64,000 nt of DNA from positions 7,520 through 71,519 of the forward strand of contig DASVEF010000299.1 in the NCBI GenBank assembly GCA_036380715.1, in the 5' to 3' direction. A program made the position numbers and the translations under genes. This stretch comes from Thermoanaerobaculia bacterium (GTDB taxonomy: Bacteria > Acidobacteriota > Thermoanaerobaculia > Multivoradales > UBA5704). Numbering within the stretch: the stretch's first letter is position 1; each line of letters opens with the position of its first letter. This document shows, piece by piece, positions 17,646 through 30,901 of the stretch. The notes below the pieces were generated by a model. That model had not been told where the DNA came from and made no database searches. It was given only the letters and a program-made list of their open reading frames with translations.

Positions 17646-19820
17646 TCAATTCAGCGGGGAGCGGCCGAGCAGGTGGCGCTCGAGCCAGGAGATTTCGGTG
17701 AAGAGCCGGGTCCGCTTGTGCGAGGGCTTGCGGAAGATGTGCCCCTCGCCCGGGTAGATCAGCAGCTCGACCGGCACGCCGCGCCAAGCCAGAGTGCGGT
17801 ACATCTCCTCGGCCTGCTCCGGGCCGTCGAATTCGCCGAACGTGATCAGCGTCGGCGTCTTCACCTGGCCGGCACGGCTGCTGGGCGACTCGTCCTGGTA
17901 GCGGGCAGGGTCCTCCCAGGGTGGCCGGCTCCGGTAGAAGCCTTCGGCCCAGAAAGCGCCCCGCGGGGAGCCGGCGACCATGGAGACGTCGTTCCAGCGC
18001 CCCGCCCCGGACACGGCGGCGCGGAACAGGCCGCTCCGGCCGATCAGGCAGTTCGTCAGCCCTCCCCCGCCGCTGTACCCCGTAACCCCCACCCGTTCGC
18101 GGTCCGCCCAGCCCAGGGCCAGCAGGTGCTCCACCCCGGCGATCACGTCAGCCGACGGACGCGAGCAGCGGTGGCCCTCCAAGGCCTGCCCGAAGGCGTC
18201 TCCCCGGCCGGCGCCGCCCCGGAAGTTCGGGGAGAGCACCAGGAATCCCCGGGAGGCCAGCAGGCCGGGATAGGAGGCGAAGCTCCCGCCCACGGACACG
18301 GTCTCCACGCGCGCCACGCCGAAGGGACCGCCATGGAGATGGACCACCAGCGGCAGCCCCTTCTCACCCTTGCGGCCCGGTGGCCAGAGGAGCACGCCCT
18401 CGATCGTGTCCCCCTCACGATTCTTCCAGGAGATCGTCTCCACCTCCGGCGCGGGATGGCGGTCGAGAGCCGCGTTGAAGCTCGTCAGCGCCCGCGCCGC
18501 CGCCATGCCGTCCGGCCCGTCCGCCAGCCAGATCTCGGGGAAACGCCGGTCGTAGCGCACGAAAGCGATCCTCCGCCCGTCCCGCGACGCCGTGAGCAAC
18601 TCGGTCATGCCACGGTGGTCGGCGAGGGTCTGAACCCGTCCGCTCGCGGGCTCGATCCGGTAGATCCGCGTCCGAGTCGAGACCAGGGCCGTCGCCAGGA
18701 TGGAGCCGCCGGCGAGGGGGACCGCCTCCAGGACGCTCCCCTCCAGATCCGGCGCGACCCGCGCGATCCCGCCGCCGGGCTCCACGCGATAGAGCCGTCC
18801 TTCGGTGGTGGTGAACCGTCCATCCCGCTCCTCCCCGGAGCCTGTGATCAGGAGGTCGCGGCCCGCCCAGAGCACCCGTTCCTCATAGACCCAGTTGCGG
18901 GTGCGCACCGGAGCGACCGCCTCCGGTCCCAGGGGCAGGACGGAGACCTCCCACTCCCTGACCGGGCCGTAGGGGCTCCCCGCTCCGAAGGCGATCCGGC
19001 CCCCGTCGGGAGAGAGATGGATGCTTCCCGGATTTGGCTCGGCCGATGCGAGGGGGACGGCGGTGCCCGTGGCGAAGTCGGCCCGGGCCAGCCGGTAGAG
19101 AGTGGTCCCGGGATCGGGGAGCTCGGGAAGGCGGCGGACGTCGCCGTAGATCCGGCGCCTCTCGCGGCCGGCCTGCAGCTCCGTGCCGGTCGGCGGGGTG
19201 ACGGCCGAGAGGACGACTCCCGAGCCGTCCGGCAGCCAGTCGTGGGAGAGGATCCCGGACTCGAAACGGGCGGGATCGGTCACCCGCCGCGGCCTACCCT
19301 CCAGTGGATCGAGGACCGAGAGCTGGGGCGCCTCCGGGGTGGAGAGGAACGACAGGAGCTTCCCGTCGGACGACCACCGGAGCTCCCGGAGGGCCGCCGG
19401 CTCGACGGCGAGGCGGACGGGCTTCGGCGCTCCGGGCGCCGCGAGGTCGATCCACCAGATGGCGTGCTCCTCCACGTCGCGGGCCGGGTCGTCCCTGCGA
19501 GCGATGAAGGCGAGCCGGTTGCCGTCCGGGGAGAGCGCGACCTCGAGGAAGGCGACCTCCGCGAGCCACTCTTCGATGGAATAGCCGGAGGCCGGAGGGA
19601 CGAGAGACAAGGCGGCGAGAAGGAGGGCCGCGAAGAGGACTGTCCTCGCCCGGGCGCGGCGCGGGCCCTCACCCCCGTCCCCTCTCCCGAAGGGAGAGGG
19701 GTGAAAGCTCTGGAAAAAGCTCAGAAGACCGCGATTTTCTCTGCAATTTCCCCCTCTCCCTCCGGGAGAGGGGGCCAGGGGGTGAGGGCTCAGCGGAACG
19801 GCCTTACGCCTTTGAAACAA
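17646..19820 (-). CDS. S9 family serine peptidase (prolyl oligopeptidase/DPP-like) with N-terminal TolB-like beta-propeller; start uncertain
   Basis: Catalytic Ser in GYSGGG; C-terminal alpha/beta hydrolase; beta-propeller repeats. The first ~55 codons of the ORF are a MITE/REP-like element (LSPHPLAPSPGGRGG...). The true start is probably near the signal peptide VLFAALLLAALSLVP, but no clean start codon was found. Confidence 0.75.
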   Translation of the reverse strand: MFQRRKAVPLSPHPLAPSPGGRGGNCRENRGLLSFFQSFHPSPFGRGDGGEGPRRARARTVLFAALLLAALSLVPPASGYSIEEWLAEVAFLEVALSPDGNRLAFIARRDDPARDVEEHAIWWIDLAAPGAPKPVRLAVEPAALRELRWSSDGKLLSFLSTPEAPQLSVLDPLEGRPRRVTDPARFESGILSHDWLPDGSGVVLSAVTPPTGTELQAGRERRRIYGDVRRLPELPDPGTTLYRLARADFATGTAVPLASAEPNPGSIHLSPDGGRIAFGAGSPYGPVREWEVSVLPLGPEAVAPVRTRNWVYEERVLWAGRDLLITGSGEERDGRFTTTEGRLYRVEPGGGIARVAPDLEGSVLEAVPLAGGSILATALVSTRTRIYRIEPASGRVQTLADHRGMTELLTASRDGRRIAFVRYDRRFPEIWLADGPDGMAAARALTSFNAALDRHPAPEVETISWKNREGDTIEGVLLWPPGRKGEKGLPLVVHLHGGPFGVARVETVSVGGSFASYPGLLASRGFLVLSPNFRGGAGRGDAFGQALEGHRCSRPSADVIAGVEHLLALGWADRERVGVTGYSGGGGLTNCLIGRSGLFRAAVSGAGRWNDVSMVAGSPRGAFWAEGFYRSRPPWEDPARYQDESPSSRAGQVKTPTLITFGEFDGPEQAEEMYRTLAWRGVPVELLIYPGEGHIFRKPSHKRTRLFTEISWLERHLLGRSPLN
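19666..19789. repeat. MITE/REP-like element, copy B (full length; reverse-complement orientation of copy A)
   Basis: ccctcacccccgtcccctctcccgaagggagaggggtgaaagctctggaaaaagctcagaagacc...ccctctccctccgggagagggggccagggggtgaggg. The core is near-identical to rc(copy A). Confidence 0.8.
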
Positions 19821-19824
19821 ACTC

Positions 19825-20343
19825 TCAGCCTCGCACGAACGTCCCGCGCTCCGTATCCTTGCGGACGCCGGGGAACTTCAGGGCGCGGCCGTGCGCCACG
19901 CAGTAGACCCCCGGCGGCAGGATGCCGGTGGCGAAAATCGCCTCGGTCAGGTTCTGCAGGGCGTCGGACTGCTTCATCTCGAACGGGCGCATGGCCCCGG
20001 TCAGGACGATCGGGATGCAGGGATCGGGAATCTCGGCGAGGAGGCAGTCGCCGGTCATGGCCAGCCGGTCGGTGCCGTGCAGGACGACGATGCCGGTCAT
20101 CTCGCCCCCCTCCCCTTCCGCACCGATCGCCTTGACCATCTGGACGACCCGGGCCCGGTCCTGGTCCGTCATGTCCAGGCTGTCCTTGCTCATCAGCTCG
20201 AGGACGCTGACCTCGGTGTCCTCCAGCCGCAGCTCGGAGAGCATCCGCCGCACGATCGAGCGCCGGTTGGCCAGCTCGCCCGACAGCTCGTCATAGGTTT
20301 TCTCGATGGTTCCGCCGGTGGTGATCAGGGTGATTCTGCGCAC
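19825..20343 (-). CDS. Asparaginase-domain protein (N-terminal type-I L-asparaginase fold only)
   Basis: TGGTIEK threonine-nucleophile motif at the N-terminus. 172 aa, so short form. Confidence 0.65.
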   Translation of the reverse strand: MRRITLITTGGTIEKTYDELSGELANRRSIVRRMLSELRLEDTEVSVLELMSKDSLDMTDQDRARVVQMVKAIGAEGEGGEMTGIVVLHGTDRLAMTGDCLLAEIPDPCIPIVLTGAMRPFEMKQSDALQNLTEAIFATGILPPGVYCVAHGRALKFPGVRKDTERGTFVRG

Positions 20344-20370: not shown

Positions 20371-20395
20371 CCCCGCTCGCGCCCGATCCCGATCC
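20371..20395. repeat. 18-bp direct repeat, copy 1 (cccgctcgcgcccgatcc), upstream of the DUF433/DUF5615 cassette
   Basis: Copy 2 at 21133-21150 (cccgctcccgcccgatcc; 17/18 match) lies inside the 3' end of the DUF983 gene. Confidence 0.45.
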
Positions 20396-20434
20396 AATGG
20401 CCAATCCCTGCCTGAGCTGCTGAGCTGTTATAGT

Positions 20435-20770
20435 GTGCTGGTGTCCAAGCTTGAGAAAGCCGAGCAGCTACTGACCGAGATGAACCGGGCAGAGAAGGCG
20501 CAGATTCTCCAGTGGGTGGTCCAGGACTTGGGGGATGCCTTTCCCGGAATCGAAAGCCGTCCGGACGTCTGCGGCGGCGAGCCGTGCATCGTCCGTACCC
20601 GGATTCCCGTCTGGCTGCTCGTCCAGGCGCGGCGTTTGAGCACCAGCGAATCCGACCTGCTGCGGGCCTATCCCACCCTTCGAGCCGAGGATCTGGCCAA
20701 CGCCTGGGCCTACTATCGCGCTCACCCTGAGGAGATCGAGCGCCAGATCCGGGAGAACGAGGCGGCCTGA
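20435..20770 (+). CDS. DUF433-domain protein (antitoxin-like partner of DUF5615)
   Basis: GTG start. CGGEPCIVRTRIPVWLLV...LLRAYPTLRAEDLANAWAYY is the DUF433 signature. 4-bp gap to the DUF5615 gene. Confidence 0.7.
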   Translation: MLVSKLEKAEQLLTEMNRAEKAQILQWVVQDLGDAFPGIESRPDVCGGEPCIVRTRIPVWLLVQARRLSTSESDLLRAYPTLRAEDLANAWAYYRAHPEEIERQIRENEAA

Positions 20771-20774
20771 GCGG

Positions 20775-21116
20775 ATGGCCCGGCTCTACACGAACGAGAA
20801 CTTCCCGCGTCCCACCGCCGAGGAGCTACGCCGGCTCGGGCACGACATTCTGACTGTCCAGGAAGCCGGCTATTCCGGGCAAGCGGTCCCAGACTCTCAA
20901 GTCCTCGACTTTGCCAAGGATGAGGAGCGTGCCGTCGTAACCCTGAATCGGAAACACTTCCTCCGCCTTCACCAGGAACGGCCAGACCATTCAGGAATTG
21001 TCGTCTGCACCTTCGATCCCGACTTTTCAGGCCAAGCCTACAGAATCCATGAAGCCCTGAAGGGCCAGGAGCCGCTCGCCGGTAAGCTCATTCGAGTCAA
21101 CCGGCCAGGGCCGTAA
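20775..21116 (+). CDS. DUF5615-family PIN-like protein (putative toxin partner of DUF433)
   Basis: 113 aa. The N-terminus MARLYTNENFP...LGHDILTVQEAG is typical of DUF5615. Confidence 0.7.
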   Translation: MARLYTNENFPRPTAEELRRLGHDILTVQEAGYSGQAVPDSQVLDFAKDEERAVVTLNRKHFLRLHQERPDHSGIVVCTFDPDFSGQAYRIHEALKGQEPLAGKLIRVNRPGP

Positions 21117-21122
21117 CGGCAG

Positions 21123-21485
21123 TCACGGTCCTTCCCGCTCCCGCCCGATCCAGTAGTTGAGCGCCACGGCGATCCCCTTGCGGTGCGGCAGCGACAGCCC
21201 GATCACCACGACGGCCGCGATGCCGATCACGATCTGGCCCAGCCAGACCCACTCGGGGCGGACCAGGAACATCAGGACCACGAAGGAGCCGGTCAGCCCG
21301 GCTGTGGTCATGTACATGAAGAACCAGGTGTCGCCCGGCTCGCGCTCGAAGCGGAACCCACACACGGTGCAGGCGTCGCGCAGGTGATGCCAGCCGTCGA
21401 AGAGCCGTCCCTCCCCGCAGCGGGGGCAGCGGCCCCGGAAACCCCGGAGCACGGCCTGCCGCAAGCTTTTGGGACGGTTCGTCAC
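21123..21485 (-). CDS. DUF983 zinc-ribbon membrane protein
   Basis: CPRCGEGRLF...CTVCGF (CxxC-x17-CxxC) followed by two TM helices. 4-bp overlap with the upstream TIR-STAND gene, so co-transcribed. Confidence 0.7.
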   Translation of the reverse strand: MTNRPKSLRQAVLRGFRGRCPRCGEGRLFDGWHHLRDACTVCGFRFEREPGDTWFFMYMTTAGLTGSFVVLMFLVRPEWVWLGQIVIGIAAVVVIGLSLPHRKGIAVALNYWIGREREGP

Positions 21486-24400
21486 CCGGGCAGCTTAGAA
21501 CAGGTCTTGCGGTAGGAGAGCTGATCGCCCACGTGGTGCGACCACTCCTCGAGGGTGAGGTTGCGCCCGACCGTACGGCAGGCGGCGTCGATCAGCTTGT
21601 CGAGCTGAAGCGACCAGAGGCGGGCGGTGCCGTCGCCGCTCGCGCTTGCCAGGCTCTGGCCGTCCGGGCTGAAGGCCAGGCTGTAGACGTTGTCCCCGTG
21701 GCCGTGCAAGACGAGCGGCCGGACGTCAGGTTGTTCCAGGTCCCAGAGGCGGACCGTGCGGTCGCGGCTCCCGCTCGCCAGGCGCTTGCCGTCCGAGCTG
21801 AAGACGGCCACCGTGACGCTGTCGTCGTGGCCGGAGAGGACGACCGGGGCCGGGGAGGGGGTCTCCAGGCTCCACACCCGGATGGTCCGGTCGTCGGCGG
21901 CCGTGGCCAGGCGGTGACCGTCCGGGCTGAAGGCCATGCCGTGGACGACCCCCTCGTGCCGGCCCACGTCGACCGCCGCAGTCGAAGGCTTCCCCACGTC
22001 CCACAGCCGGACGTCGCCTCGCCGGGTTCCGGTGGCCAGACGCTTGCCGTCGGGGCTGAACGCGACGGTGACGAAGCTGTCTCCCTTCCGTGAGAGCACG
22101 ACGGGAGCCGCGGTCGGAGCTTCCACGTTCCACAGGCGGACCTCCGCGTCCTCGCTGGCGGCGGCGATCCGGCGCCCGTCCGGGCTGAAGGCGAGGTCCA
22201 CGACCCTCTGTTCCCTGGGACCCTGGAGGACAAACGCCGAGCTCTCGTCCTCGAGGCTCTCGACACGGACGGTGCCCTCCCGGTTGCCGATCGCCACGCG
22301 GCGGCCGTCCGGGCTGAACGCCACGCTCTCGATCTGCCCCATCCAGAAGGAGTGATCCACCGCGGGAGTCTCCGGGTGGCGCAGGTCCCAGACGCGGGCG
22401 TGCCCGTCCCAGCTCGCGGTCGAGACGCGCCCGCCGGTCCGGTCGAAGGCGACCCGCACGACGCGTCCGCCGTGCCCTCCCAGCACGACCGGCTCGGTCT
22501 CCCGGTGCTCCAGGCTCCAGAGTCTCGCGAAGCCGTCCGAGCTCCCGGTGGCCACCCAGCGGCTGTCCGGGCTGAACGCCAGGCTCACGATCGTGTCGTC
22601 GTGGCCGCGGAGCGTGGCGGTCAGGCGGGGAGTCGAAATATCGACCTTCCACAGCCGGAGCGTGGCGTCCTCGCCACCCGTGGCCAGCCAGCGGCCGTCC
22701 GGGCTGAAGGCGAGGATCCGGATGTCGTCCTCGTGTCCCAGCAGAGGGAACGGCTCGCCTCCGCCCTCGGTCCCCAGGAGATAGACCGTGCCGTCCCAGC
22801 TCCCCGTGGCCAGACGGCGGCCGTCCGGACTGAACGCCACGGCGCGGAAGGGGTTCTCGTGCCCGGTCAGGAAGCGGCTGTCGCGCACGCCCGCGGGGTC
22901 CCACAGGCGGACCGTGCCGTCGTCGCTTCCAGACACCAGGATGCTGCCGTCCGGGCTGAACACCAGCACGCCGATGTTGCCCGTATGGCCGGCGAGGACC
23001 ACGGGGGCGGACTGCGGCTCGGCGGTCTTCCAGACCCGCACCTTGTGGTCCCGGGCGCCGGTCGCCACCAGGCTGCTGTCCGGGCTGAAGGCCAGCGCTT
23101 CGATCTCTCCTTCGTGACCCGAGAGGATGGTGGCGGCAGGCTCCGCCGTCGTGAGATTCCAGAGGCGGGCCTTGCGGTCGTCCCCGCCGGCCGCCAGCCA
23201 GCGGCCATCGGCGCTGAAGGCGACCATGCGCACGGGACGCTCGCCGGCGGCGAGGACGCGGGGATGCGCCGAGGGGTTGCGGGAATCCCAGACGCGGACC
23301 GTGCCGTCTTCCCCGCCGGAGGCGAGTTGCGAGCCGCCGGGGTTGAAGGCCAGATCCTTGACATCCCCCTTGTGACCGCCGAGCACCGCGGGCGCGCTCC
23401 CCGGCTGCGCCACGTCCCAGAGCCGCACGGTACCGTCCTCGCTCGCCGTGGCGAGGCGGCGTCCGTCCGGGCTGAAAGCGACTTTCGTGACCCCTGCCTG
23501 GTGGCCAGCCAGGGGGATCGAGCCCGCCACCTTCGCCAGAGTGTGCCGCAACGCCTCCTCGCCGAGGGCGGTCTCCAGCCCGATCTCGCGCTTCAGGGCG
23601 ATGGACTCCAGAGCCAGGAGGAGGCTGCGTTGTGGCGTGTCCTCGATGCCGGTCACCGCCTGGGCGGCGAGCTGGCGCACCAGGGCGGTACGGCCCTGCA
23701 GCTTCGCCGTCTGGCGCTGCAGGAAGGAGACGACGGCCAGGGCCGCGGCGACCAGCCCGACGGCGGCGAGCAGGATCGAGAACCGGCGCATCCGGGCGGC
23801 CGCCTGTCTCTGCGTCTCCTCGCGGGCCTTGGCCTCCTCGGTGAGGCGTTGCGCCGCAACCAGCTCGCGCTGGCGCTGCGCCTCCTTCTCCGCCGCCTCG
23901 CGGTCACGGAGCGCCACGCTCGCGGCGACGAATCCCCGCTCCAGCTCGTTCACCTCGCCGGCGCGCTTCTCCACCAGCTCCTGCGCCGCGGCGAGCTGGG
24001 CGCCGCGCAACAGGCTCCCCTCGTCCTGGCCGAGGCGCAGCCACTCCTCAGCCTGTTCGGTCAACCGGCGCTGGATGCGCAGGGCGGCCCGCCCCTCCTC
24101 GATCCAGCCGCGGAAGCGGGGCCAGTTGCGGATCAGCGCCTCGTGCGACACGTCCACCAGCTCGTCGCCGCTCGCCGCGTCGCGGCCGGTGGTGAGCAGC
24201 CGCGCCTCGGCCAGCCGGCCGACGACCGACTTCAGCTCGGCGTTCTGTCCGGGCAGCTCCTTGAAGCGGGCGCGGCGGCGCGTGTCCTCCGTGCCCTCGC
24301 CGGGCTGCACCAGGCGCAGCAGGACGCGGCGGGCCATCTCCTGCTCGCCGGGCGAGAGCTTCTCCAGCTCCTCCTCCGCCCGCCGGGCGATGGCGCCGTG

Positions 24401-25717
24401 CACGCCGCCGATCGCCGCGTAGGCCTCGTGCGTCAGGCGCCGCCCTTGCCGGCGCTCCCACAGCTCGAGCAGCGCGTGCTCCAGGAGCGGGAGAGCCCCG
24501 GGCTGGCCAGACAGGTCCTGCAGGATGGCGTCGGGCAGCCCTTCCTCCATCTCGAGCCCGACCTGGAGGGCCGGCCCTTCGATCGCCTGGCGCAGCTCGC
24601 TCTCCACCATCGGCGAAACCAGCACGTGGCTGTCCGACATGCGGTCGGCCAGTTGGGGATAGGCCGCGGCGCGGGCGTAGAAATCCGCCCGCATGGTGAC
24701 CACGACCACCGTGCGCCCCTCGGCCACGTTCGCCGCGTACAGCAGGTTGTCGAGGAAGCGCTGCCGCACCTCTTCGGACGGGCAGAGAGTGAACACCTCC
24801 TCGAACTGGTCGACCACGATCACCACCCGGCGCCGCTCGTCGCCCCCGGTCAGGGCGAGCCGCACCGCGGAGTGGAGCGCCTTGTCGCTGACGCTCAACG
24901 TCTCCTGGAGCTGCAGCAGGGTGGCGACCCGGCCGCCTTCGGGATCGAGGACCGGCGCCAGTTGGACGGCCAGCTCGTCGAGCGGCTGCGAGCCCGGCTT
25001 CATGACCAGCACGGGCCATGAGTCGCTGCCCGGCAGCGCGCCCTGACGCAGCGTCGGGACCAGGCCGGCGCGAACCACCGACGACTTGCCGCTGCCCGAC
25101 GGTCCCAGCACGGCGAGGAAGCGGCTCTGGCGCAGCCGCTCCACCAGCCACTGCGTGAGCGCCTCGCGGCCGTGGAAGAAGCGGGCGTCCTCCTCGTGGA
25201 ACGCGGCGAGACCGCGGTAGGGGCAGACGCCGATCTCCGCGACCTCCCCTTCGGAAGGGCCGGGCGGGAGGCCGCGGACGCCGCAGATCAGACGGCGGAA
25301 CGCGTCCTCGTCCGCGAAGCCGTTGCGGAAATCGACCCAGGTGACGCGGCTGAGGAAACGCGGCAGCCGTCCCCGCTCGGGCATCACGGCGCCCTGGAGC
25401 AGCACCGGGATGACCCGGTACTCGGGGGACTTCACCCGCTCGTCGAGGGCCGCCCGCATCTCCTCGTTCTCCCAGGCGCCCAGCCCGTGCGGGCCGAGGA
25501 AAACCGCGCAGGTGATGCTCTCGTCGAGCGCCCTCTCCAGAGCCTCCTGCCAGACCTCGCCGGGGACGAGGTGCCACTTGTCGAGGAACGGCTGCACCCC
25601 GGCGTCGCGCAGCCGCCGGGCCAGCTCCTCCACGAGCGGCTTGTCCGCGCTGTGGTGGCTGAGGAAGACGTCGTAGCGCTTCGCGGGGGCTGCTGCCGGA
25701 GCCGTGGCGGTGCTCAT
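21482..25717 (-). CDS. TIR domain / STAND P-loop NTPase / transmembrane helix / WD40-repeat protein (1411 aa)
   Basis: N-terminal TIR (YDVFLSHHSADKPLVEELARRLRDAGVQPFLDKWHLVPGEVW). STAND N-terminal helix motif GVCPYRGLAAFHEEDARFFHGRE plus Walker A VLGPSGSGKSSVV. Predicted TM segment FSILLAAVGLVAAALAVVSFL. At least 14 WD40 blades (recurring GH...VRLWD/VRVW). Confidence 0.85.
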   Translation of the reverse strand: MSTATAPAAAPAKRYDVFLSHHSADKPLVEELARRLRDAGVQPFLDKWHLVPGEVWQEALERALDESITCAVFLGPHGLGAWENEEMRAALDERVKSPEYRVIPVLLQGAVMPERGRLPRFLSRVTWVDFRNGFADEDAFRRLICGVRGLPPGPSEGEVAEIGVCPYRGLAAFHEEDARFFHGREALTQWLVERLRQSRFLAVLGPSGSGKSSVVRAGLVPTLRQGALPGSDSWPVLVMKPGSQPLDELAVQLAPVLDPEGGRVATLLQLQETLSVSDKALHSAVRLALTGGDERRRVVIVVDQFEEVFTLCPSEEVRQRFLDNLLYAANVAEGRTVVVVTMRADFYARAAAYPQLADRMSDSHVLVSPMVESELRQAIEGPALQVGLEMEEGLPDAILQDLSGQPGALPLLEHALLELWERRQGRRLTHEAYAAIGGVHGAIARRAEEELEKLSPGEQEMARRVLLRLVQPGEGTEDTRRRARFKELPGQNAELKSVVGRLAEARLLTTGRDAASGDELVDVSHEALIRNWPRFRGWIEEGRAALRIQRRLTEQAEEWLRLGQDEGSLLRGAQLAAAQELVEKRAGEVNELERGFVAASVALRDREAAEKEAQRQRELVAAQRLTEEAKAREETQRQAAARMRRFSILLAAVGLVAAALAVVSFLQRQTAKLQGRTALVRQLAAQAVTGIEDTPQRSLLLALESIALKREIGLETALGEEALRHTLAKVAGSIPLAGHQAGVTKVAFSPDGRRLATASEDGTVRLWDVAQPGSAPAVLGGHKGDVKDLAFNPGGSQLASGGEDGTVRVWDSRNPSAHPRVLAAGERPVRMVAFSADGRWLAAGGDDRKARLWNLTTAEPAATILSGHEGEIEALAFSPDSSLVATGARDHKVRVWKTAEPQSAPVVLAGHTGNIGVLVFSPDGSILVSGSDDGTVRLWDPAGVRDSRFLTGHENPFRAVAFSPDGRRLATGSWDGTVYLLGTEGGGEPFPLLGHEDDIRILAFSPDGRWLATGGEDATLRLWKVDISTPRLTATLRGHDDTIVSLAFSPDSRWVATGSSDGFARLWSLEHRETEPVVLGGHGGRVVRVAFDRTGGRVSTASWDGHARVWDLRHPETPAVDHSFWMGQIESVAFSPDGRRVAIGNREGTVRVESLEDESSAFVLQGPREQRVVDLAFSPDGRRIAAASEDAEVRLWNVEAPTAAPVVLSRKGDSFVTVAFSPDGKRLATGTRRGDVRLWDVGKPSTAAVDVGRHEGVVHGMAFSPDGHRLATAADDRTIRVWSLETPSPAPVVLSGHDDSVTVAVFSSDGKRLASGSRDRTVRLWDLEQPDVRPLVLHGHGDNVYSLAFSPDGQSLASASGDGTARLWSLQLDKLIDAACRTVGRNLTLEEWSHHVGDQLSYRKTCSKLPG

Positions 25718-25783
25718 GATGCCAAATCGCGGGATTTCAAGGAGATCCTACGACAAGACGCCTCTTCTGTCGACCCCTGACGG
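25718..25783. repeat. ~55-66 bp direct repeat, copy 1, bracketing the vapBC cassette
   Basis: gatgccaaatcgcgggatttcaaggagatcctacgacaagacgcctcttctgtcgacccctgacgg, compared with 26508-26561 ggtgccaaatcgcggatttcgacaaggcgcccctgttgtcgaccccggggg. Confidence 0.7.
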
Positions 25784-25870
25784 CAAGGAGCATAGAGGCG
25801 CGCTCGGTAGTTGCCCTCATCGGGCAGATCACACGTATACTATGAGTGAGGGCCGTATGCGAGGAAGCTC

Positions 25871-26092
25871 ATGAAGACAAAGCTGACTGTCACCATCGAT
25901 GAGGAGCTGATTCCCAAAGCGAAGCGCTACGCCCGGCAACGGGGAATCTCTCTCTCCCAGCTCATCGAGACGTCGCTGCGGAGCACCACGGAAGGGGAAG
26001 AAACCACCTTCTCCCAGCGCTGGAGGGGGAAGTTCGAACCGGCCAACCGCGATGACGAGCGCTACAAGGCTCTCGCGAAGCGTTACCTGTGA
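25871..26092 (+). CDS. vapB: VapB-type antitoxin (DUF6364-like)
   Basis: 73 aa. MKTKLTVTIDEELIPKAKRYARQRGISLSQLIE is the typical small antitoxin pattern. ATGA overlap with the PIN gene. Confidence 0.65.
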   Translation: MKTKLTVTIDEELIPKAKRYARQRGISLSQLIETSLRSTTEGEETTFSQRWRGKFEPANRDDERYKALAKRYL

Positions 26093-26505
26093 TCGTTCTC
26101 GTCGACACAGATGTACTGATCGACCTGGCGCTCAACCGAGCCCCGAACGCCGAGCCCGCGGCTCATCTTCTCGATCTACTTGAAAGACGGCCGGGAACAG
26201 CCTTCGTGGCTTGGCACTCCCTCGCGAACTTCTACTATGTGGTCTCTCCGATCCGGGGAAAGCAGCCGGCCCGGGATTTCCTCATCGACTTGGCGCGCTT
26301 CATCGAAGTGGCGTCCACGACAACAGAGAGCCTGCTCTACGCGGGCCAGTTGGACATGCCCGACTTCGAGGATGCGATGCAGGTCGCCGCAGCCTTGGCT
26401 TGTCGGGCCGGGCTGATCGCCACCCGGAACCTTCGCCACTATAAGCGGTCCCCGGTCCGAGCCGCGGAGCCACGCACTGTCGTGGAACAACTGCTGGGAA
26501 ACTGA
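26089..26505 (+). CDS. vapC: PIN-domain toxin VapC
   Basis: MIVLVDTDVLID with acidic residues at PIN positions (D6, D8, E..., D...). 138 aa. Confidence 0.85.
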   Translation: MIVLVDTDVLIDLALNRAPNAEPAAHLLDLLERRPGTAFVAWHSLANFYYVVSPIRGKQPARDFLIDLARFIEVASTTTESLLYAGQLDMPDFEDAMQVAAALACRAGLIATRNLRHYKRSPVRAAEPRTVVEQLLGN

Positions 26506-26507
26506 TC

Positions 26508-26561
26508 CATGGTGCCAAATCGCGGATTTCGACAAGGCGCCCCTGTTGTCGACCCCGGGGG
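26508..26561. repeat. Direct repeat, copy 2, bracketing vapBC
   Basis: See 25718-25783. Confidence 0.7.
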
Positions 26562-26584
26562 TGTGAAGGTCCGTTCGCGCGGAA

Positions 26585-26880
26585 GGGAGGATCGTACAGA
26601 CCGGGAGGATCGTCCGGTCCTGCGGTGCGAACGTCCGTTCCTGCGGGGAGACGGCTCGGGCGAGTAGGGAGGAGCGTCCGTTCCTACGGGGAGACGGGCC
26701 GGGCGAGCGGGGAGACGGGCCGTCCGAGTGGGGAGAGCGTTCCGTTCCTACGGGTGGGAAGCTCGTTCGGGCTCCCCCAAGGCCCTCCCCACTGGAACGG
26801 AGCGTCCGTTCGCGTGGGGAGAGGCCTCTCCCCGCACGAACGGAGCTTCCGGGCGCCCGCCGGCGCTTCGCCCCCGCTCG
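26585..26880. repeat. Degenerate tandem repeat array (units ~22 bp, cgtccgttccTRcggggagacgg; irregular spacing) in a ~700-bp non-coding gap
   Basis: At least four copies of the gtccgttcc-containing unit plus gggagacggg repeats. Includes the local palindrome gaacgga-gcg-tccgttc. Confidence 0.6.
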
Positions 26881-27211: not shown

Positions 27212-30200
27212 TTAGGCGGACGAGTCACGTTGCCAGTCGGCCATTCGCCCAATGAGCCATATGAACGGCTCGACCTGGCCGTTCAACACGCATGCGCCCT
27301 TGATAATGCTGTCAAGCAGTCCCTGCACATCAGACAAGCACAAGGCGGAGACCGCCCGGTTGTCCGTGGGAAGCAATGAACAGAACGGCGTATCTGTTGT
27401 CTCGCGAGCTCCCAACGTGACGTCTCGCTCCTTGATCATAATCGTGATCGGTTCTCCATTGTCTGGGAGTCCGACCGACACGGCGAGATTCGGAGTCGGG
27501 CCATGGGCCCTGGCCAGCGTTTCCTTCAAGTAGGCGGAAAAGGCTTTGGCCCACTCCTCCACGCCGGATCGTCCTGGGGCCACCTCGAATTCGCTTTCGC
27601 CGGACGCGCGATCTTCCAGAGCCTGTCGCTCCTCCTCAGCTTCGCGCTCCGCGTCGATGAGGGCCTCGAGGGTCCTGTCAACGTCCTCTCGTGTATGAGA
27701 AGCCGAGCAGATGAACCTTAGGCGACCTCGTCCGATCTCCACGACCGGGTACGTTACAGCCGCCGTGAGCACGCCACGCTTATATAAGCCGTGTGCAATC
27801 GCATAGAGCTTGTCTTTATCGGAAAAATGCGGGGTGACAATGGGGCCATCTCCTGTCCCGAGGTCATATCCTGCTTCGGAGAACCGCTTCCGCATGTAGG
27901 TAGTTATATCCCAGAGTCGCTCTCGCAGTGCGTCGTCCGCGCTCAATCGGCGCAAGGCGGCGAGCGCTGCCGCGATATCGGCAGGGCTGGTCGTAGCCTG
28001 GAATATAAAAGCTCTGGCGGACGACTTCAGCAGGTCAATGTGCTCCTCTCGGGCGGCAATCACACCCCCAATGCTCCCGAGCGCCTTACTGAGCGTCGTC
28101 ATGATGAAGTCTACCTGGTCGGTGACACCTTGAGAAGCGCAAAGACCGGCTCCTCGAGGGCCATAGAAGCCAAAGGAATGCGCCTCATCCACGAGCACGA
28201 GCGCATCGTATTTCTTCGCCGTGAGCACGATGTCCGCTACCGGCGCCACCCCCTCTCCCATGCTGTAGACGCTTTCGAGAACTACAAGAGCCGTGCGGTA
28301 AGGCGACGCTTCCGTCTTGAGGACTGATTCCAAGTCCGATGGATTGTTGTGTTGAAACGTTCTTATCGTCGCACCGGACAGCCGGGCGCCGTCAACGAGG
28401 GAAGCGTGACAGAGCTGGTCCATCACGACGACATCGTTGTCGCCAAGAATGCCTGCGACAACTCCGAGATTCGCGGTGAATCCTGTGGGGAACAGGCACG
28501 CGGCAGGCTTTCCCACCAACTCGGCAAAGGCTCTCTCGAACTCCAGGTGGAGATCGGTTACGCCGGATGCCACTGCGGATGTTCCCATTCCGGCCCCGAA
28601 GCGCTCCAGGGCAGATCTGGCTTCCTCAATGACCTCCTGATCACGGTTCAGGCCGAGGTACAGGTTGGTGGTCCATATGATGGCCTCGCGTTCTTCATGG
28701 GTGTACATATCGGCGACAGTGCCTCTGTGCGCGCTTCCTGTACGCAGCAACTTGCTGTGGGGGTCTCGGCCACGACGGCCCACCAGCCGCTTGAGCTCCC
28801 GGACGAGCATACCCTTGTCGGTAGCGGACCAGGAGGGCGCCTTCGCAGCCATGAACGGCGGGTAGCTGGACTGAATCTGGGCCTGAAAGCTAGCGAGTGT
28901 ATCCGAGGCTCCACCGCGCGCCTTCTCCGGCGGCGCATGCTCCGTGGCGCTGCTCATCGACTCGAGGACGTAATCGGCCAGAGCAGCAGGAGTAAAGCGC
29001 TGGATAACAGCCGATGCCGGCAGCCTTCGACCTATGTTCGCGGCAAGCCGATTGCTCAGCTCCACCACGGTCAACGAGTCGAGGCCGAGGTCGTTCAATG
29101 AGTGATCCAGCGGCACTTGCTCGGGATCACGAAGACGAAGGAGAGGCGCGATCTCGCCTCGAATGATCGATAGCAGGGCCGCATGCCGCTCGTCCTTCGA
29201 AAGGCCCGCCAGACGGTGCACCCCGCCCCCGGCGTCGCGGGTGACGTCGGCCCCGGAGTGAGGGGCGAGGCATTGGCGCCGGTCAGGATCGCGACTCGCC
29301 TCCGGTTCCGGGAGCTGCTTGCGGTCGAGCTTGCCGTTGGGCAACCGAGGCAGCTCCTCGAGGTGCATCACGACCTGAGGCAGCATGTACTTCGGCAGCC
29401 GCTCCGCCAGGTACGCTCGCGCCGCCTCACGGGTCACCGCCTCGTCCCGGCTCACCACATACACCACGAGCATCTTCTGGCCGCCGCCCCCGTCCACGAC
29501 CGCCGCCGCTGCGCCGTCCACGCCTTCCATCGACTCCAGCGTCGACTCGATCTCTTCGAGCTCTACCCGGAAGCCTCGGATCTTTACCTGTTGGTCGATC
29601 CGGCCCAGGAACTCGATCTCGCCGTCTTCCCTCCACCGGCATAGATCTCCTGTTTTGTACAGCCGCTCTTCCGGAATCGGCCCGGTCGGATCCACCTCGA
29701 TGAACCGCTCCCTCGTAAGCTCCTCGTCGTGCAGGTATCCGCGCCCAAGCTGGTCTCCCGCCAAGTACATCTCTCCTGGAACCCCGACGGGAACCGGCTG
29801 CATGGAATCGTCCAGGATGTACGACCGAGAGCTCGACACCGGCTTGCCGATCGTGATCGACTCCGCACCTGCAGAAACCTCGGTAGCCGTCGAAAAAACC
29901 GTGTCCTCGGTCGCCCCATAGACGTTGACCACCCGCAGGCCCGGCTGCAGCGCGTGAAGCTGGTCCACCAGCGACCGCTTGAGCACTTCGCCCCCCAAGA
30001 CGAAACACCGGATCCCCTCGGGCAGCCGTCCGGTCGCGAGCAACGCCTGCATCCCCGACGGCACCATGGTGCACGTCCTCACCCGGTCCGCCGACGGCAG
30101 CTCCAGCAGGGCCAGCAGGTTCTCGGCCAGCACCACCGTCCCGCCGAGTGACAACGTACCCAGGATCTCCATGACCGAGGCGTCGAAACAGATAGAGGCA

Positions 30201-30901
30201 GCCGACAGCACACCCGACAGCTCCTCGTCATCCAGCAACTTGCGCATCGACCGGGTCATCGCGACAACGCTTCGATGTTCGACGGCGACCCCCTTCGGTC
30301 GCCCTGTCGAGCCCGACGTGTACATGACATACGCCAGGTCGCTCGCCGACGGCCCAGCCACGCCGTCCGCCGTCCACTCCCCCACCTCATCGAGCCGTAC
30401 GAGCTTTGGCACCCCCTCGCAGAGCTCTGCCATACTCTCGCGGTCCACGATGGCGGCCGCTACACGAGCGTGCTCCAGCATGTAGCGCACCCGCTCCCGC
30501 GGATACGCCGGATCCAGCGGCACGTACGTACACCCCGCTCGCAATACCCCTACGAGAGTCGCCACGAGCTCCCACGTGCGGCTCATGCACACCCCGACCA
30601 ACGACCGCGGCTCCACGCCCCGAGCCACGAGCTCGCCCGCAATCGCGCTCGCCCGTTCCGTCAGTCGCTGGTAGTCGATCGCCGTCTTGCCATCGATGAT
30701 CGCCGTCCGCTCCGGATGCGCCTGCGCCTGCTTCTCGATGAGCCCCCAGACCGTCTCCGTCCGGTCGTACGCCTCCTGCGTCCGAGCCCATTCGACGTGA
30801 ACACGTTGCGCCTGCTCCTCGTCCAGCAAGGAGACTCTCCCTCTAGGCACACTCGGATCCTGGGTAACATGCTCCAGCACACGCTTTGGGGTATTGTTCA
30901 T
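27212..30901 (-). CDS. NRPS-like tridomain: adenylation domain, PCP, PLP-dependent alpha-oxoamine synthase, plus a ~130-aa C-terminal domain of unknown function
   Basis: A domain cores A3 [13 protein letters not shown]7 YKTGD, A8 [21 protein letters not shown]10 PNGKLDR; the FDAS Asp implies an amino-acid substrate. PCP motif LGLDSL. AOS/BioF-like class-II aminotransferase ([21 protein letters not shown]-lysine TLSKALG). Confidence 0.85.

Follow-up and report, generated by a model that had tools for sequence, protein, structure and literature searches.

We analysed a 64-kb stretch of genomic DNA from a Thermoanaerobaculia bacterium (contig DASVEF010000299.1; hereafter the window) and studied a region of six genes within it, which encode DUF433, DUF5615, DUF983, TIR-nSTAND1-TM-WD40 (TM, transmembrane helix), DUF6364 and PIN_3 proteins. 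The largest of them (21482..25717, minus strand; an identical gene is present on a public Logan contig) is an open reading frame (ORF) for a protein of 1411 amino acids that is, by its sequence, a member of the known, computationally defined nSTAND1 family. From the N- to the C-terminus the protein consists of a TIR_2 domain, the nSTAND1 NTPase, one TM helix and 14 WD40 repeats. The ORF, Pfam and hydropathy data thereby bear out, feature by feature, the four parts listed in a preliminary description of this DNA. With moderate confidence we read the locus as one self-contained system, a single-gene bitopic nSTAND1 receptor with an outward-facing WD40 sensor and a role in biological conflict. 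The placement of the sensor outside the cytoplasmic membrane, that is in the periplasm of this diderm acidobacterium, is the part that we consider likely; it is argued from a positive-inside charge bias, from reporter-like domain fusions and from a co-varying pair of cysteines in related proteins.

The TIR-nSTAND1 core and its family

The TIR domain (amino acids 17-144; 25286..25669, minus strand) was matched by TIR_2 with an E-value of 2e-28. Its predicted catalytic glutamate, E86 (codon 25460-25462, minus strand), lies within the motif W82-E-N-E-E86 and in phmmer alignments falls on the W-x-x-x-E glutamate of the solved bacterial TIR domains PdTIR (3h16), TcpB (4lzp and 4c7m) and AbTIR (7uxr and 8g83). 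Neither W82 nor E86 varies in an alignment of 26 family members, and the domain looks catalytically competent in this respect. The preliminary description had proposed a TIR effector, an NTP switch and a repeat sensor, and this layout proved correct. It had also stated that the proposal would fall if neither a TIR nor a STAND model matched, or if the glutamate was missing and the homologues sat in core-genome synteny; both models match and the glutamate is in place.

The NTPase module (amino acids 166-566; 24020..25222, minus strand) spans the full length of the nSTAND1 model PF20703 (model positions 1-378 of 379), scoring an E-value of 7e-134 within the entire protein and of 3e-135 on its own. 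On this region nSTAND1 scores 452 bits against a cutoff of 27.1, whereas NACHT (PF05729) reaches 20.4 bits and stays under its cutoff of 26.7, which rules out membership in the bNACHT group; nSTAND3, nSTAND6 and AAA_16 also remain under their cutoffs. The motif CPYRGLAAFHEEDARFFHGRE at amino acids 165-185 reads as described earlier, and it is followed in the sequence by a Walker A motif, GPSGSGKSS (amino acids 205-213; 25079-25105, minus strand), and a Walker B motif, VIVVDQFEE (amino acids 299-307; within 24788-24823, minus strand). Eleven residues of this module do not vary among 26 homologues: G205, S207, G208, G210, K211, S212, D303, Q304, F305, E306 and E307. An AlphaFold model of amino acids 1-720 (mean pLDDT 85) contains the TIR domain and a compact NTPase, the latter mostly above 90. 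A fold search with this model returned the plant TIR-NLR RPP1 as the best match in the PDB (7crc_B, E 3.7e-9, 577 columns), followed by ORC/Cdc6, Apaf-1 and EfAvs5. At the sequence level the NTPase had no significant match among PDB chains.

The nSTAND1 clade was defined in 2021 by Kaur, Iyer, Burroughs & Aravind (eLife; PMC8195603). Its members are described there as predicted counter-invader systems in which the central NTPase is combined with N-terminal effector-associated domains or effectors, TIR among them, and with variable C-terminal sensors. In addition, nSTAND1 proteins occur among the "antigen sensors" diversified by diversity-generating retroelements (DGR; PMC10907252) and are placed on a 2026 STAND phylogeny with WD40 and FGE-sulfatase sensors (PMC13581612). 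The earlier view that the protein belongs to no named system is superseded, since its NTPase is Pfam nSTAND1 and a TIR domain is among the effectors listed for this clade.

A search with amino acids 1-720 retrieved more than 4783 proteins at E ≤ 1e-10. Species-representative genomes from the Chloroflexota, Acidobacteriota, Planctomycetota, Actinomycetota, Cyanobacteria and Proteobacteria yielded at least 580 confirmed family loci, and relatives were furthermore found on 175 plasmids and on 3 phage-labelled metagenomic contigs. Across homologues the TIR-nSTAND1 core shares 50-64% identity with the query and the C-termini are swapped: WD40, TPR, FGE-sulfatase, BNR/sortilin and penicillin-binding protein (PBP) transpeptidase modules occur there, as do Ser/Thr kinase, GAF-histidine kinase, PAS-GGDEF-EAL and CHAT modules. 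Five homologues (P0058, P0046, P0001, P0089 and P0004) carry the core fused to modules that were unexpected, namely PBP_dimer plus transpeptidase, FGE-sulfatase-TM-FHA, GAF-histidine kinase, PAS-GGDEF-EAL, and Ser/Thr kinase with multiple TM segments. The variety of the fusions suggests that the core is a general-purpose switch wired to many inputs or outputs. At the N-terminus, relatives of the nSTAND1 module on Streptomyces plasmids (H9, H12-H14) are annotated as helix-turn-helix domain-containing, and three chromosomal Streptomyces loci (L053, L064 and L083) encode an N-terminal region of approximately 115-165 amino acids, then nSTAND1, a TM segment and a further ~765 amino acids. A DNA-binding domain may stand in place of TIR in such a membrane-anchored Streptomyces protein.

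The surroundings of the family were studied around eight close homologues, which are the closest TIR-nSTAND1-TM-propeller proteins with usable contigs. Six of the eight lie beside BREX genes, Dnd-like genes, toxin-antitoxin (TA) pairs, integrases, transposases or plasmid genes, with DndB/C-like genes, TIR-CHAT and RepA among the genes of these contexts. One homologue is located directly downstream of BREX genes (PglZ, BrxL and an MmeI-type methyltransferase) together with a PIN/PhdYeFM pair (L086, 1061-5744), and another is directly followed by a TIR_2-CHAT gene (L092, 9709-11208). The conflict or variable-region flavour that had been noted for the locus is right, because homologues often have TA modules, integrases, transposases or defence genes around them and the family recurs on plasmids.

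We also searched for a conserved downstream partner by comparing same-strand ORFs that start between -25 and +80 bp of the STAND stop codon in 78 loci. No recurrent downstream protein was detected in these loci, nor beside the eight close homologues, and a conserved downstream partner of any kind was ruled out by this survey. In four Anaerolineae loci (L030, L047, L071 and L076) the gene for a protein of 300-480 amino acids with a signal-peptide or lipoprotein-like N-terminus overlaps or abuts the STAND stop codon; it may represent a lineage-specific extracytoplasmic partner. Because the core is shared among proteins with swapped C-termini and no downstream gene is conserved, the system is predicted to be a single-gene one.

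Several observations speak against the conflict-receptor reading. PADLOC recognised no defence system at the locus, and no other known defence system was recognised in the window around the STAND gene. The gene itself, with a GC content of 72.7% against 68.9% for the window, does not look foreign. One of the eight close homologues lies among metabolic genes, and no experimentally characterised member of the nSTAND1 clade was found in the literature searched. Moreover, the histidine kinase, GGDEF/EAL and PBP fusions of relatives suggest a possible use of the core in general signalling besides immunity. In one alternative the protein would be a non-immune transmembrane signalling receptor for envelope stress, development or cell-cell recognition, with the TIR product as a regulatory signal instead of an abortive-infection or death effector. 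It would fit the homologue among metabolic genes, the lack of a recognised defence system in the window, close core relatives that bear GAF-histidine kinase, PAS-GGDEF-EAL, Ser/Thr kinase and PBP modules, all of them typical of signal transduction, as well as the helix-turn-helix annotation of the Streptomyces relatives, and an outward-facing sensor would be blind to cytoplasmic phage proteins. We nevertheless regard this alternative as unlikely, since the TIR domain keeps the catalytic glutamate typical of NAD+-cleaving TIR domains, six of the eight close homologues have defence, mobile-element or TA genes around them, with BREX directly adjacent in one case and a TIR-CHAT gene in another, the family is frequent on plasmids, and the clade was defined through its association with the effectors of conflict systems (PMC8195603).

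The transmembrane helix and the WD40 sensor

The TM helix FSILLAAVGLVAAALAVVSFL (amino acids 646-666; 23720..23782, minus strand) comprises 21 apolar residues with a Kyte-Doolittle value of 2.77 and is predicted to act as a signal-anchor in the N-in/C-out orientation. According to DSSP of the AlphaFold model it is part of one continuous predicted helix (amino acids 591-689; 23651..23947, minus strand), which begins as a charged coiled-coil-like stalk, passes through the TM segment and ends as a juxtamembrane helix. The preliminary description could not assign the internal TM helix to anything named; it is instead typical of the named nSTAND1 family. A strongly hydrophobic segment is found 25-70 residues past nSTAND1 in approximately two thirds of the best 120 homologues, and such a segment follows nSTAND1 also in most of 80 genome loci, in nearly all of their full-length family ORFs, whichever N-terminal domain they carry. 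Its position is conserved across the family and its sequence is not. Judged from these comparisons, the TM helix is a hallmark of the family. No mention of a TM helix between nSTAND1 and the sensor was found in the nSTAND1 descriptions of the literature searched, including the accessible part of PMC8195603. In the 2026 survey STANDs are presented as proteins that recognise molecules within the cell (PMC13581612), a paper on TM-type NACHT proteins suggests periplasmic sensing in one line (Kibby et al., bioRxiv 10.1101/2022.07.19.500537), and the DGR paper predicts a periplasmic location for one NACHT target (PMC10907252).

With a single membrane span, and with 645 N-terminal amino acids that need NTP and NAD+, the WD40 domain would have to be extracytoplasmic. 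The orientation is supported by the charges that flank the span. In 160 TM-bearing relatives the mean number of lysine plus arginine residues is 5.24 on the N-terminal side (15 flanking residues there) versus 2.54 on the C-terminal side; it is higher on the N-terminal side in 147 of the 160 proteins and higher on the C-terminal side in 7. Acidic residues are equal across the span (1.75 vs 1.73) and the apolar core averages 22 residues.

Furthermore, the modules that relatives carry seem to act as natural topology reporters. Among the best 120 homologues, the helix is absent from all 14 proteins with GAF-HisKA-HATPase or PAS-GGDEF-EAL modules, it stands directly before the module in all but one of the WD40 proteins, and it does so in every protein with a TPR, FGE-sulfatase, BNR or PBP module. 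Homologue P0058 has the order TIR-nSTAND1-TM-PBP_dimer-Transpeptidase. In P0046 (TIR-nSTAND1-TM-FGE-sulfatase-TM-FHA) the cytoplasmic-type FHA domain comes past a second TM segment, and in P0004 the kinase is placed before the TM segment. Thus periplasmic-type modules appear past the helix and cytoplasmic-type modules occur either in proteins that lack it or before it.

The predicted extracytoplasmic sensor consists of 14 WD40 repeats (21587..23521, minus strand; PF00400, 14 stretches, E 1.6e-147), which probably form two seven-bladed propellers. At least 14 blades had been proposed earlier, and the structural comparison agrees with this count: the AlphaFold model of amino acids 667-1411 (pLDDT 80) contains three short helices, about 56 beta-strands and two short C-terminal helices, and its best fold match is the 14-blade Nostoc propeller 2ymu (34% identity, E 1.5e-41), with Apaf-1 next. 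The DNA that encodes the repeats has a periodicity of 129 nt. Past the propellers lies the C-terminal tail AACRTVGRNLTLEEWSHHVGDQLSYRKTCSKLPG (21485..21586, minus strand) with C1380 and C1406, the only cysteines in the 745 amino acids that follow the TM helix. The tail motif AC-x12-W-x13-16-C recurs in homologues across phyla, and in the tails, read by eye, both cysteines are present in 19, neither in 3 and a single one in 0. Cysteines kept or lost together are the pattern expected of a disulfide; C1380 and C1406 are therefore a candidate disulfide staple, which points to an oxidising compartment.

Three considerations weaken the topology argument. The charge bias of the window protein itself is weak, with 5 lysine or arginine residues on the N-terminal side versus 4 on the C-terminal side. 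The 160 relatives share ancestry, so that 147:7 is a ratio of non-independent counts that overstates their independence while its direction is uniform. Finally, the argument draws on sequence statistics of related proteins. In the opposing explanation the hydrophobic segment would not span the membrane, or would be a mere tether, and the WD40 domain would bind a phage protein inside the cell, in the manner of Avs and Apaf-1-like STANDs. Published STAND sensors, WD40 and FGE included, are assumed to recognise invaders inside cells (PMC13581612; PMC8195603), the WD40 region resembles that of Apaf-1, and the weak charge bias of the window protein would suit such an explanation. We consider a cytoplasmic sensor rather improbable, however, since a single span leaves the N-terminal part on one side of the membrane and the C-terminal part on the other, and a segment of 21 apolar residues that is conserved in position and not in sequence argues for such a span. 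The bias of the family is positive-inside, a PBP transpeptidase lies past the helix and cytoplasmic-type modules never directly follow it, the tail cysteines co-vary, and PADLOC gave no Avs match.

Neighbouring genes

The DUF983 gene (21123..21485, minus strand; PF06170, E 2e-9) encodes 120 amino acids with a CxxC...CxxC zinc ribbon and hydrophobic segments. Its GTG start codon overlaps the TGA stop codon of the STAND gene by 4 bp (GTGA), and this start yields an N-terminus equal in length to those of homologues. Owing to the overlap, DUF983 is probably co-transcribed with the STAND gene in this genome, as had been proposed. The co-occurrence of the two genes in homologues, which had been suggested as a check, was surveyed with a hidden Markov model (HMM) built from 120 DUF983 homologues and searched in six-frame ORFs within 10 kb on either side of 80 nSTAND1 loci. 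The model found DUF983 in none of the 80 loci even at E-values up to 50, nor around the first four of the close homologues; it matched only the window, its duplicate contig and loci that had been retrieved via DUF983 itself. Among the Pfam-annotated neighbours of the eight close homologues DUF983 was likewise absent (0/8). A part as partner is therefore not borne out.

The relatives of DUF983 lead to the same result. The closest homologues are single small genes with 60-72% identity, apart from one at 90% on a 795-bp contig, and those that are named belong to Thermoanaerobaculia. Three homologues could be followed at four places on contigs of 0.6-3.5 Mb, where they adjoin pabB/aminotransferase, HSP20, MFS or unrelated genes, and no TIR or STAND neighbour was found at any of these places. 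The GC content of the gene (68.9%) equals the window mean, and in alphaproteobacteria DUF983 is a COX-operon gene (PMC10411912). DUF983 as a partner of the system was ruled out by the HMM and Pfam surveys and by the unrelated contexts of its relatives, and we judge it from these comparisons to be an incidental neighbour, a small membrane protein typical of the lineage whose association with the receptor is idiosyncratic. A point that tells against the single-gene reading is that the overlap implies co-transcription, and a lineage-specific functional link between DUF983 and the receptor may exist despite the comparative data.

On the plus strand a DUF433 gene (20435-20770, Pfam E 3e-19) and a gene for the PIN-like DUF5615 (20775-21116, Pfam E 1e-22) lie 4 bp apart, and the pair is convergent with the STAND-DUF983 operon. 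The likely start of DUF433 is the GTG at 20435 (111 amino acids), in keeping with the gene call on the identical public contig; the start at 20371 that was given earlier is probably too early, like the longest-ORF start at 20306. On the other side of the operon and divergent from the STAND gene, a DUF6364 gene (25871-26092, plus strand; 73 amino acids, E 9e-18, with weak RHH_3/CcdA-like matches) overlaps by 4 bp a PIN_3 toxin gene (26089-26505, plus strand; 138 amino acids, Pfam E 3e-17). This arrangement, in which the small gene of a predicted antitoxin overlaps that of a predicted PIN-domain toxin downstream of it, fits the VapBC-type layout, and DUF433/DUF5615 would qualify as a TA-like pair by adjacency.

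TA pairs are thus present on both sides of the operon, as was described; their standing as conserved partners in a defence island is contradicted by comparison and by composition. We searched all loci by phmmer with the four TA proteins of the window and detected no relatives beside other family members save one weak DUF433 match, and on this result the pairs were ruled out as conserved partners. A DUF433/DUF5615 pair also adjoins one homologue (P0120). The GC contents of DUF433/DUF5615 (62.6%) and vapBC (61.4%) are 6-8 points under that of the window. As far as composition and comparison allow, the TA pairs are separate, compositionally foreign cassettes and bystanders. Hence a two-gene system with DUF983 as a dedicated co-receptor, anchor or effector and the TA pairs in the same defence island, which would draw on the GTGA overlap with its homologue-backed start, on the predicted membrane location of both the DUF983 and STAND proteins, and on the flanking TA pairs with their recurrence beside P0120, is very improbable in view of the HMM and Pfam surveys, the DUF983 homologues that lack a TIR or STAND neighbour, the unremarkable GC content and alphaproteobacterial COX-operon context of DUF983, and the near absence of TA relatives beside family members.

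A direct repeat of approximately 50-64 bp brackets the vapBC cassette. The left copy (25714..25777), which carries a 14-nt insertion, comprises the STAND gene's start codon and 5' leader together with its -35-like hexamer, and the right copy (26507-26556) lies past the cassette; the consensus is CCATG(A/G)TGCCAAATCGCGG...CGACAAG.CGCC.CT..TGTCGACCCC. Within the 64 kb there are exactly two occurrences of either repeat half, where 0.14 and 0.00 are expected by chance. Because the left copy belongs to the STAND gene itself, the repeat suggests that the vapBC cassette was inserted secondarily into the STAND leader with duplication. A sigma-70-like promoter match, TCGACA-17-TAGGAT (25745..25773, minus strand), stands 28 bp upstream of the STAND start codon; it is a consensus match only, and the scan gave 2 sites versus 0.3 expected in the region. 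No tRNA genes were found in the window, no integrase or transposase among the scanned neighbours of the STAND gene, and no Rfam families within 19-28 kb of the window; an NCBIfam scan gave nothing specific for the locus. The neighbours mark a variable region and not a multi-gene system.

Further features were observed next to the region. Directly past the vapBC cassette, a gene on the minus strand (27212-30901) encodes a 1229-amino-acid fusion of AMP-binding (adenylation), PP-binding and class I/II aminotransferase domains with an 8-amino-7-oxononanoate-synthase-like layout, and the GC content there is lower (60-65%). The 700-bp gap between vapC and this gene, which resembles a nonribosomal peptide synthetase gene, holds a degenerate tandem array (26565-26860) with units of 64, 43 and 21 nt, a consensus like GAGCGTCCGTTCCTACGGGGAGACGGGCCGGGCGAGCGGGGAG and internal inverted repeats; neither an Rfam match nor a convincing ORF was found in it. 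At 19672-19780, between the genes for an S9 peptidase and an asparaginase-like protein, lies the palindromic pair GGGAGAGGGG/CCCCTCTCCC, with 30-nt arms that are 87% complementary. The palindromes resemble intergenic hairpins of the REP type (repetitive extragenic palindromes) and inflate the apparent N-terminus of the S9 peptidase ORF.

Known systems and a proposed mechanism

The protein shares with the nSTAND1 clade the full-length NTPase, a TIR effector, a C-terminal repeat sensor, a standalone gene and a variable context. It differs in that Kaur et al., in the accessible part of their article (PMC8195603), discuss mainly FGS/lectin sensors that bind invader molecules, whereas here the sensor has 14 WD40 repeats, and a TM helix separates NTPase and sensor both here and in most of the sampled relatives. 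The likeness to Avs proteins that had been noted is one of layout. Avs1-5 and the newer Avs families (PMC13581612) have the same order of effector, STAND NTPase and repeat sensor and are single-gene systems often found in defence islands; however, Avs sensors are cytoplasmic and bind phage proteins, whereas the window protein has a TM helix and probably an extracytoplasmic sensor, so that its sensor would not share the cytoplasm with phage proteins. No Avs model in PADLOC-DB matched at E ≤ 0.01, where only weak TIR-domain and WD40/HEAT-type matches appeared, and Avs membership was ruled out on this basis and by the different NTPase clade. The protein is thus not an Avs member, and its mode of sensing is probably not Avs-like either, since the TM helix parts the WD40 domain from TIR and NTPase. 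The PADLOC run that had been recommended for the locus assigned no named system. Thoeris was rejected as well, as ThsB matches were marginal (E 0.002-0.005) and no ThsA-like gene (SIR2/Macro-SLOG) was found among the neighbours.

Plant TIR-NLRs, with the RPP1 and ROQ1 resistosomes, combine, as is predicted for the window protein, a TIR NADase with a STAND switch that is activated by oligomerisation, and they provide the best fold match of the TIR plus NTPase part. They differ in sequence (14% identity), in their NB-ARC NTPase and cytosolic leucine-rich repeat (LRR) and C-JID sensors, and in the lack of a TM helix. Apaf-1 and bacterial Apaf-1-like STANDs also have tandem WD40 propellers after a STAND module; Apaf-1, in contrast, has an AP-ATPase, a CARD effector and a cytosolic sensor of cytochrome c, and it has neither a TM helix nor a TIR domain. 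Toll-like receptors are comparable only in how they work: repeats outside the cell serve as the sensor, one TM helix crosses the membrane, and the TIR domain in the cytoplasm acts when clustered. Their sensor is N-terminal and their TIR domain C-terminal, the repeats are LRR and not WD40, there is no NTPase switch and the TIR domain is a scaffold and no enzyme, and no homology beyond the TIR fold is implied. The layout of extracytoplasmic sensor and cytoplasmic output is shared with TM-bearing bacterial NACHT proteins (bioRxiv 10.1101/2022.07.19.500537) and with sensor-TM-effector receptors such as BlaR1 or PknD; the NACHT proteins are described with multiple TM regions and belong to another NTPase clade, and none of them is a TIR-nSTAND1-TM-WD40 protein.

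In the mechanism that we propose for the single-gene receptor, the TIR and NTPase domains would be cytoplasmic, where NAD+ and NTP are available, and the TM helix would serve as signal-anchor. A ligand would bind the outward-facing, periplasmic propellers; it might be a phage component that crosses the envelope, a toxin or surface molecule of foreign origin, a product of envelope damage, or cell-wall fragments, and the PBP-fused relative hints at envelope chemistry. The signal would then pass through the continuous stalk/TM helix and release autoinhibition, nSTAND1 would swap its nucleotide and oligomerise at the inner face of the membrane, and the clustered TIR domains would form composite active sites and cleave NAD+. 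Growth arrest or cell death, or a nucleotide signal, could be the outcome. NADase activity, oligomerisation, ligand and phenotype are taken in this scheme from the analogy with STAND/NLR and TIR proteins, which lowers the confidence in it.

At the level of the locus the outcome is mainly a clean-up, and DUF983 and the TA pairs give no basis for defining a new defence system of several genes. The sole moderately new point is the topology, with a sensor that would face outward; its significance lies at the level of the family, and it would be of interest to the field of bacterial immunity if true. We put forward tentatively, as a possibility that falls somewhat short of an even chance, that the TM-bearing majority of nSTAND1 proteins, with the window protein among them, are immune receptors of the STAND/NLR type whose surveillance is directed at the periplasm or cell surface and not at the cytoplasm, following a Toll-like-receptor logic of independent origin. 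If so, phage entry machinery, incoming toxins or foreign cells could be sensed before the cytoplasm is invaded, or without any such invasion. Confirmation would extend bacterial STAND/NLR-type immunity from purely intracellular sensing to envelope surveillance, and ligand screens would shift from cytoplasmic phage proteins to periplasm-exposed phage, toxin and cell-wall molecules.

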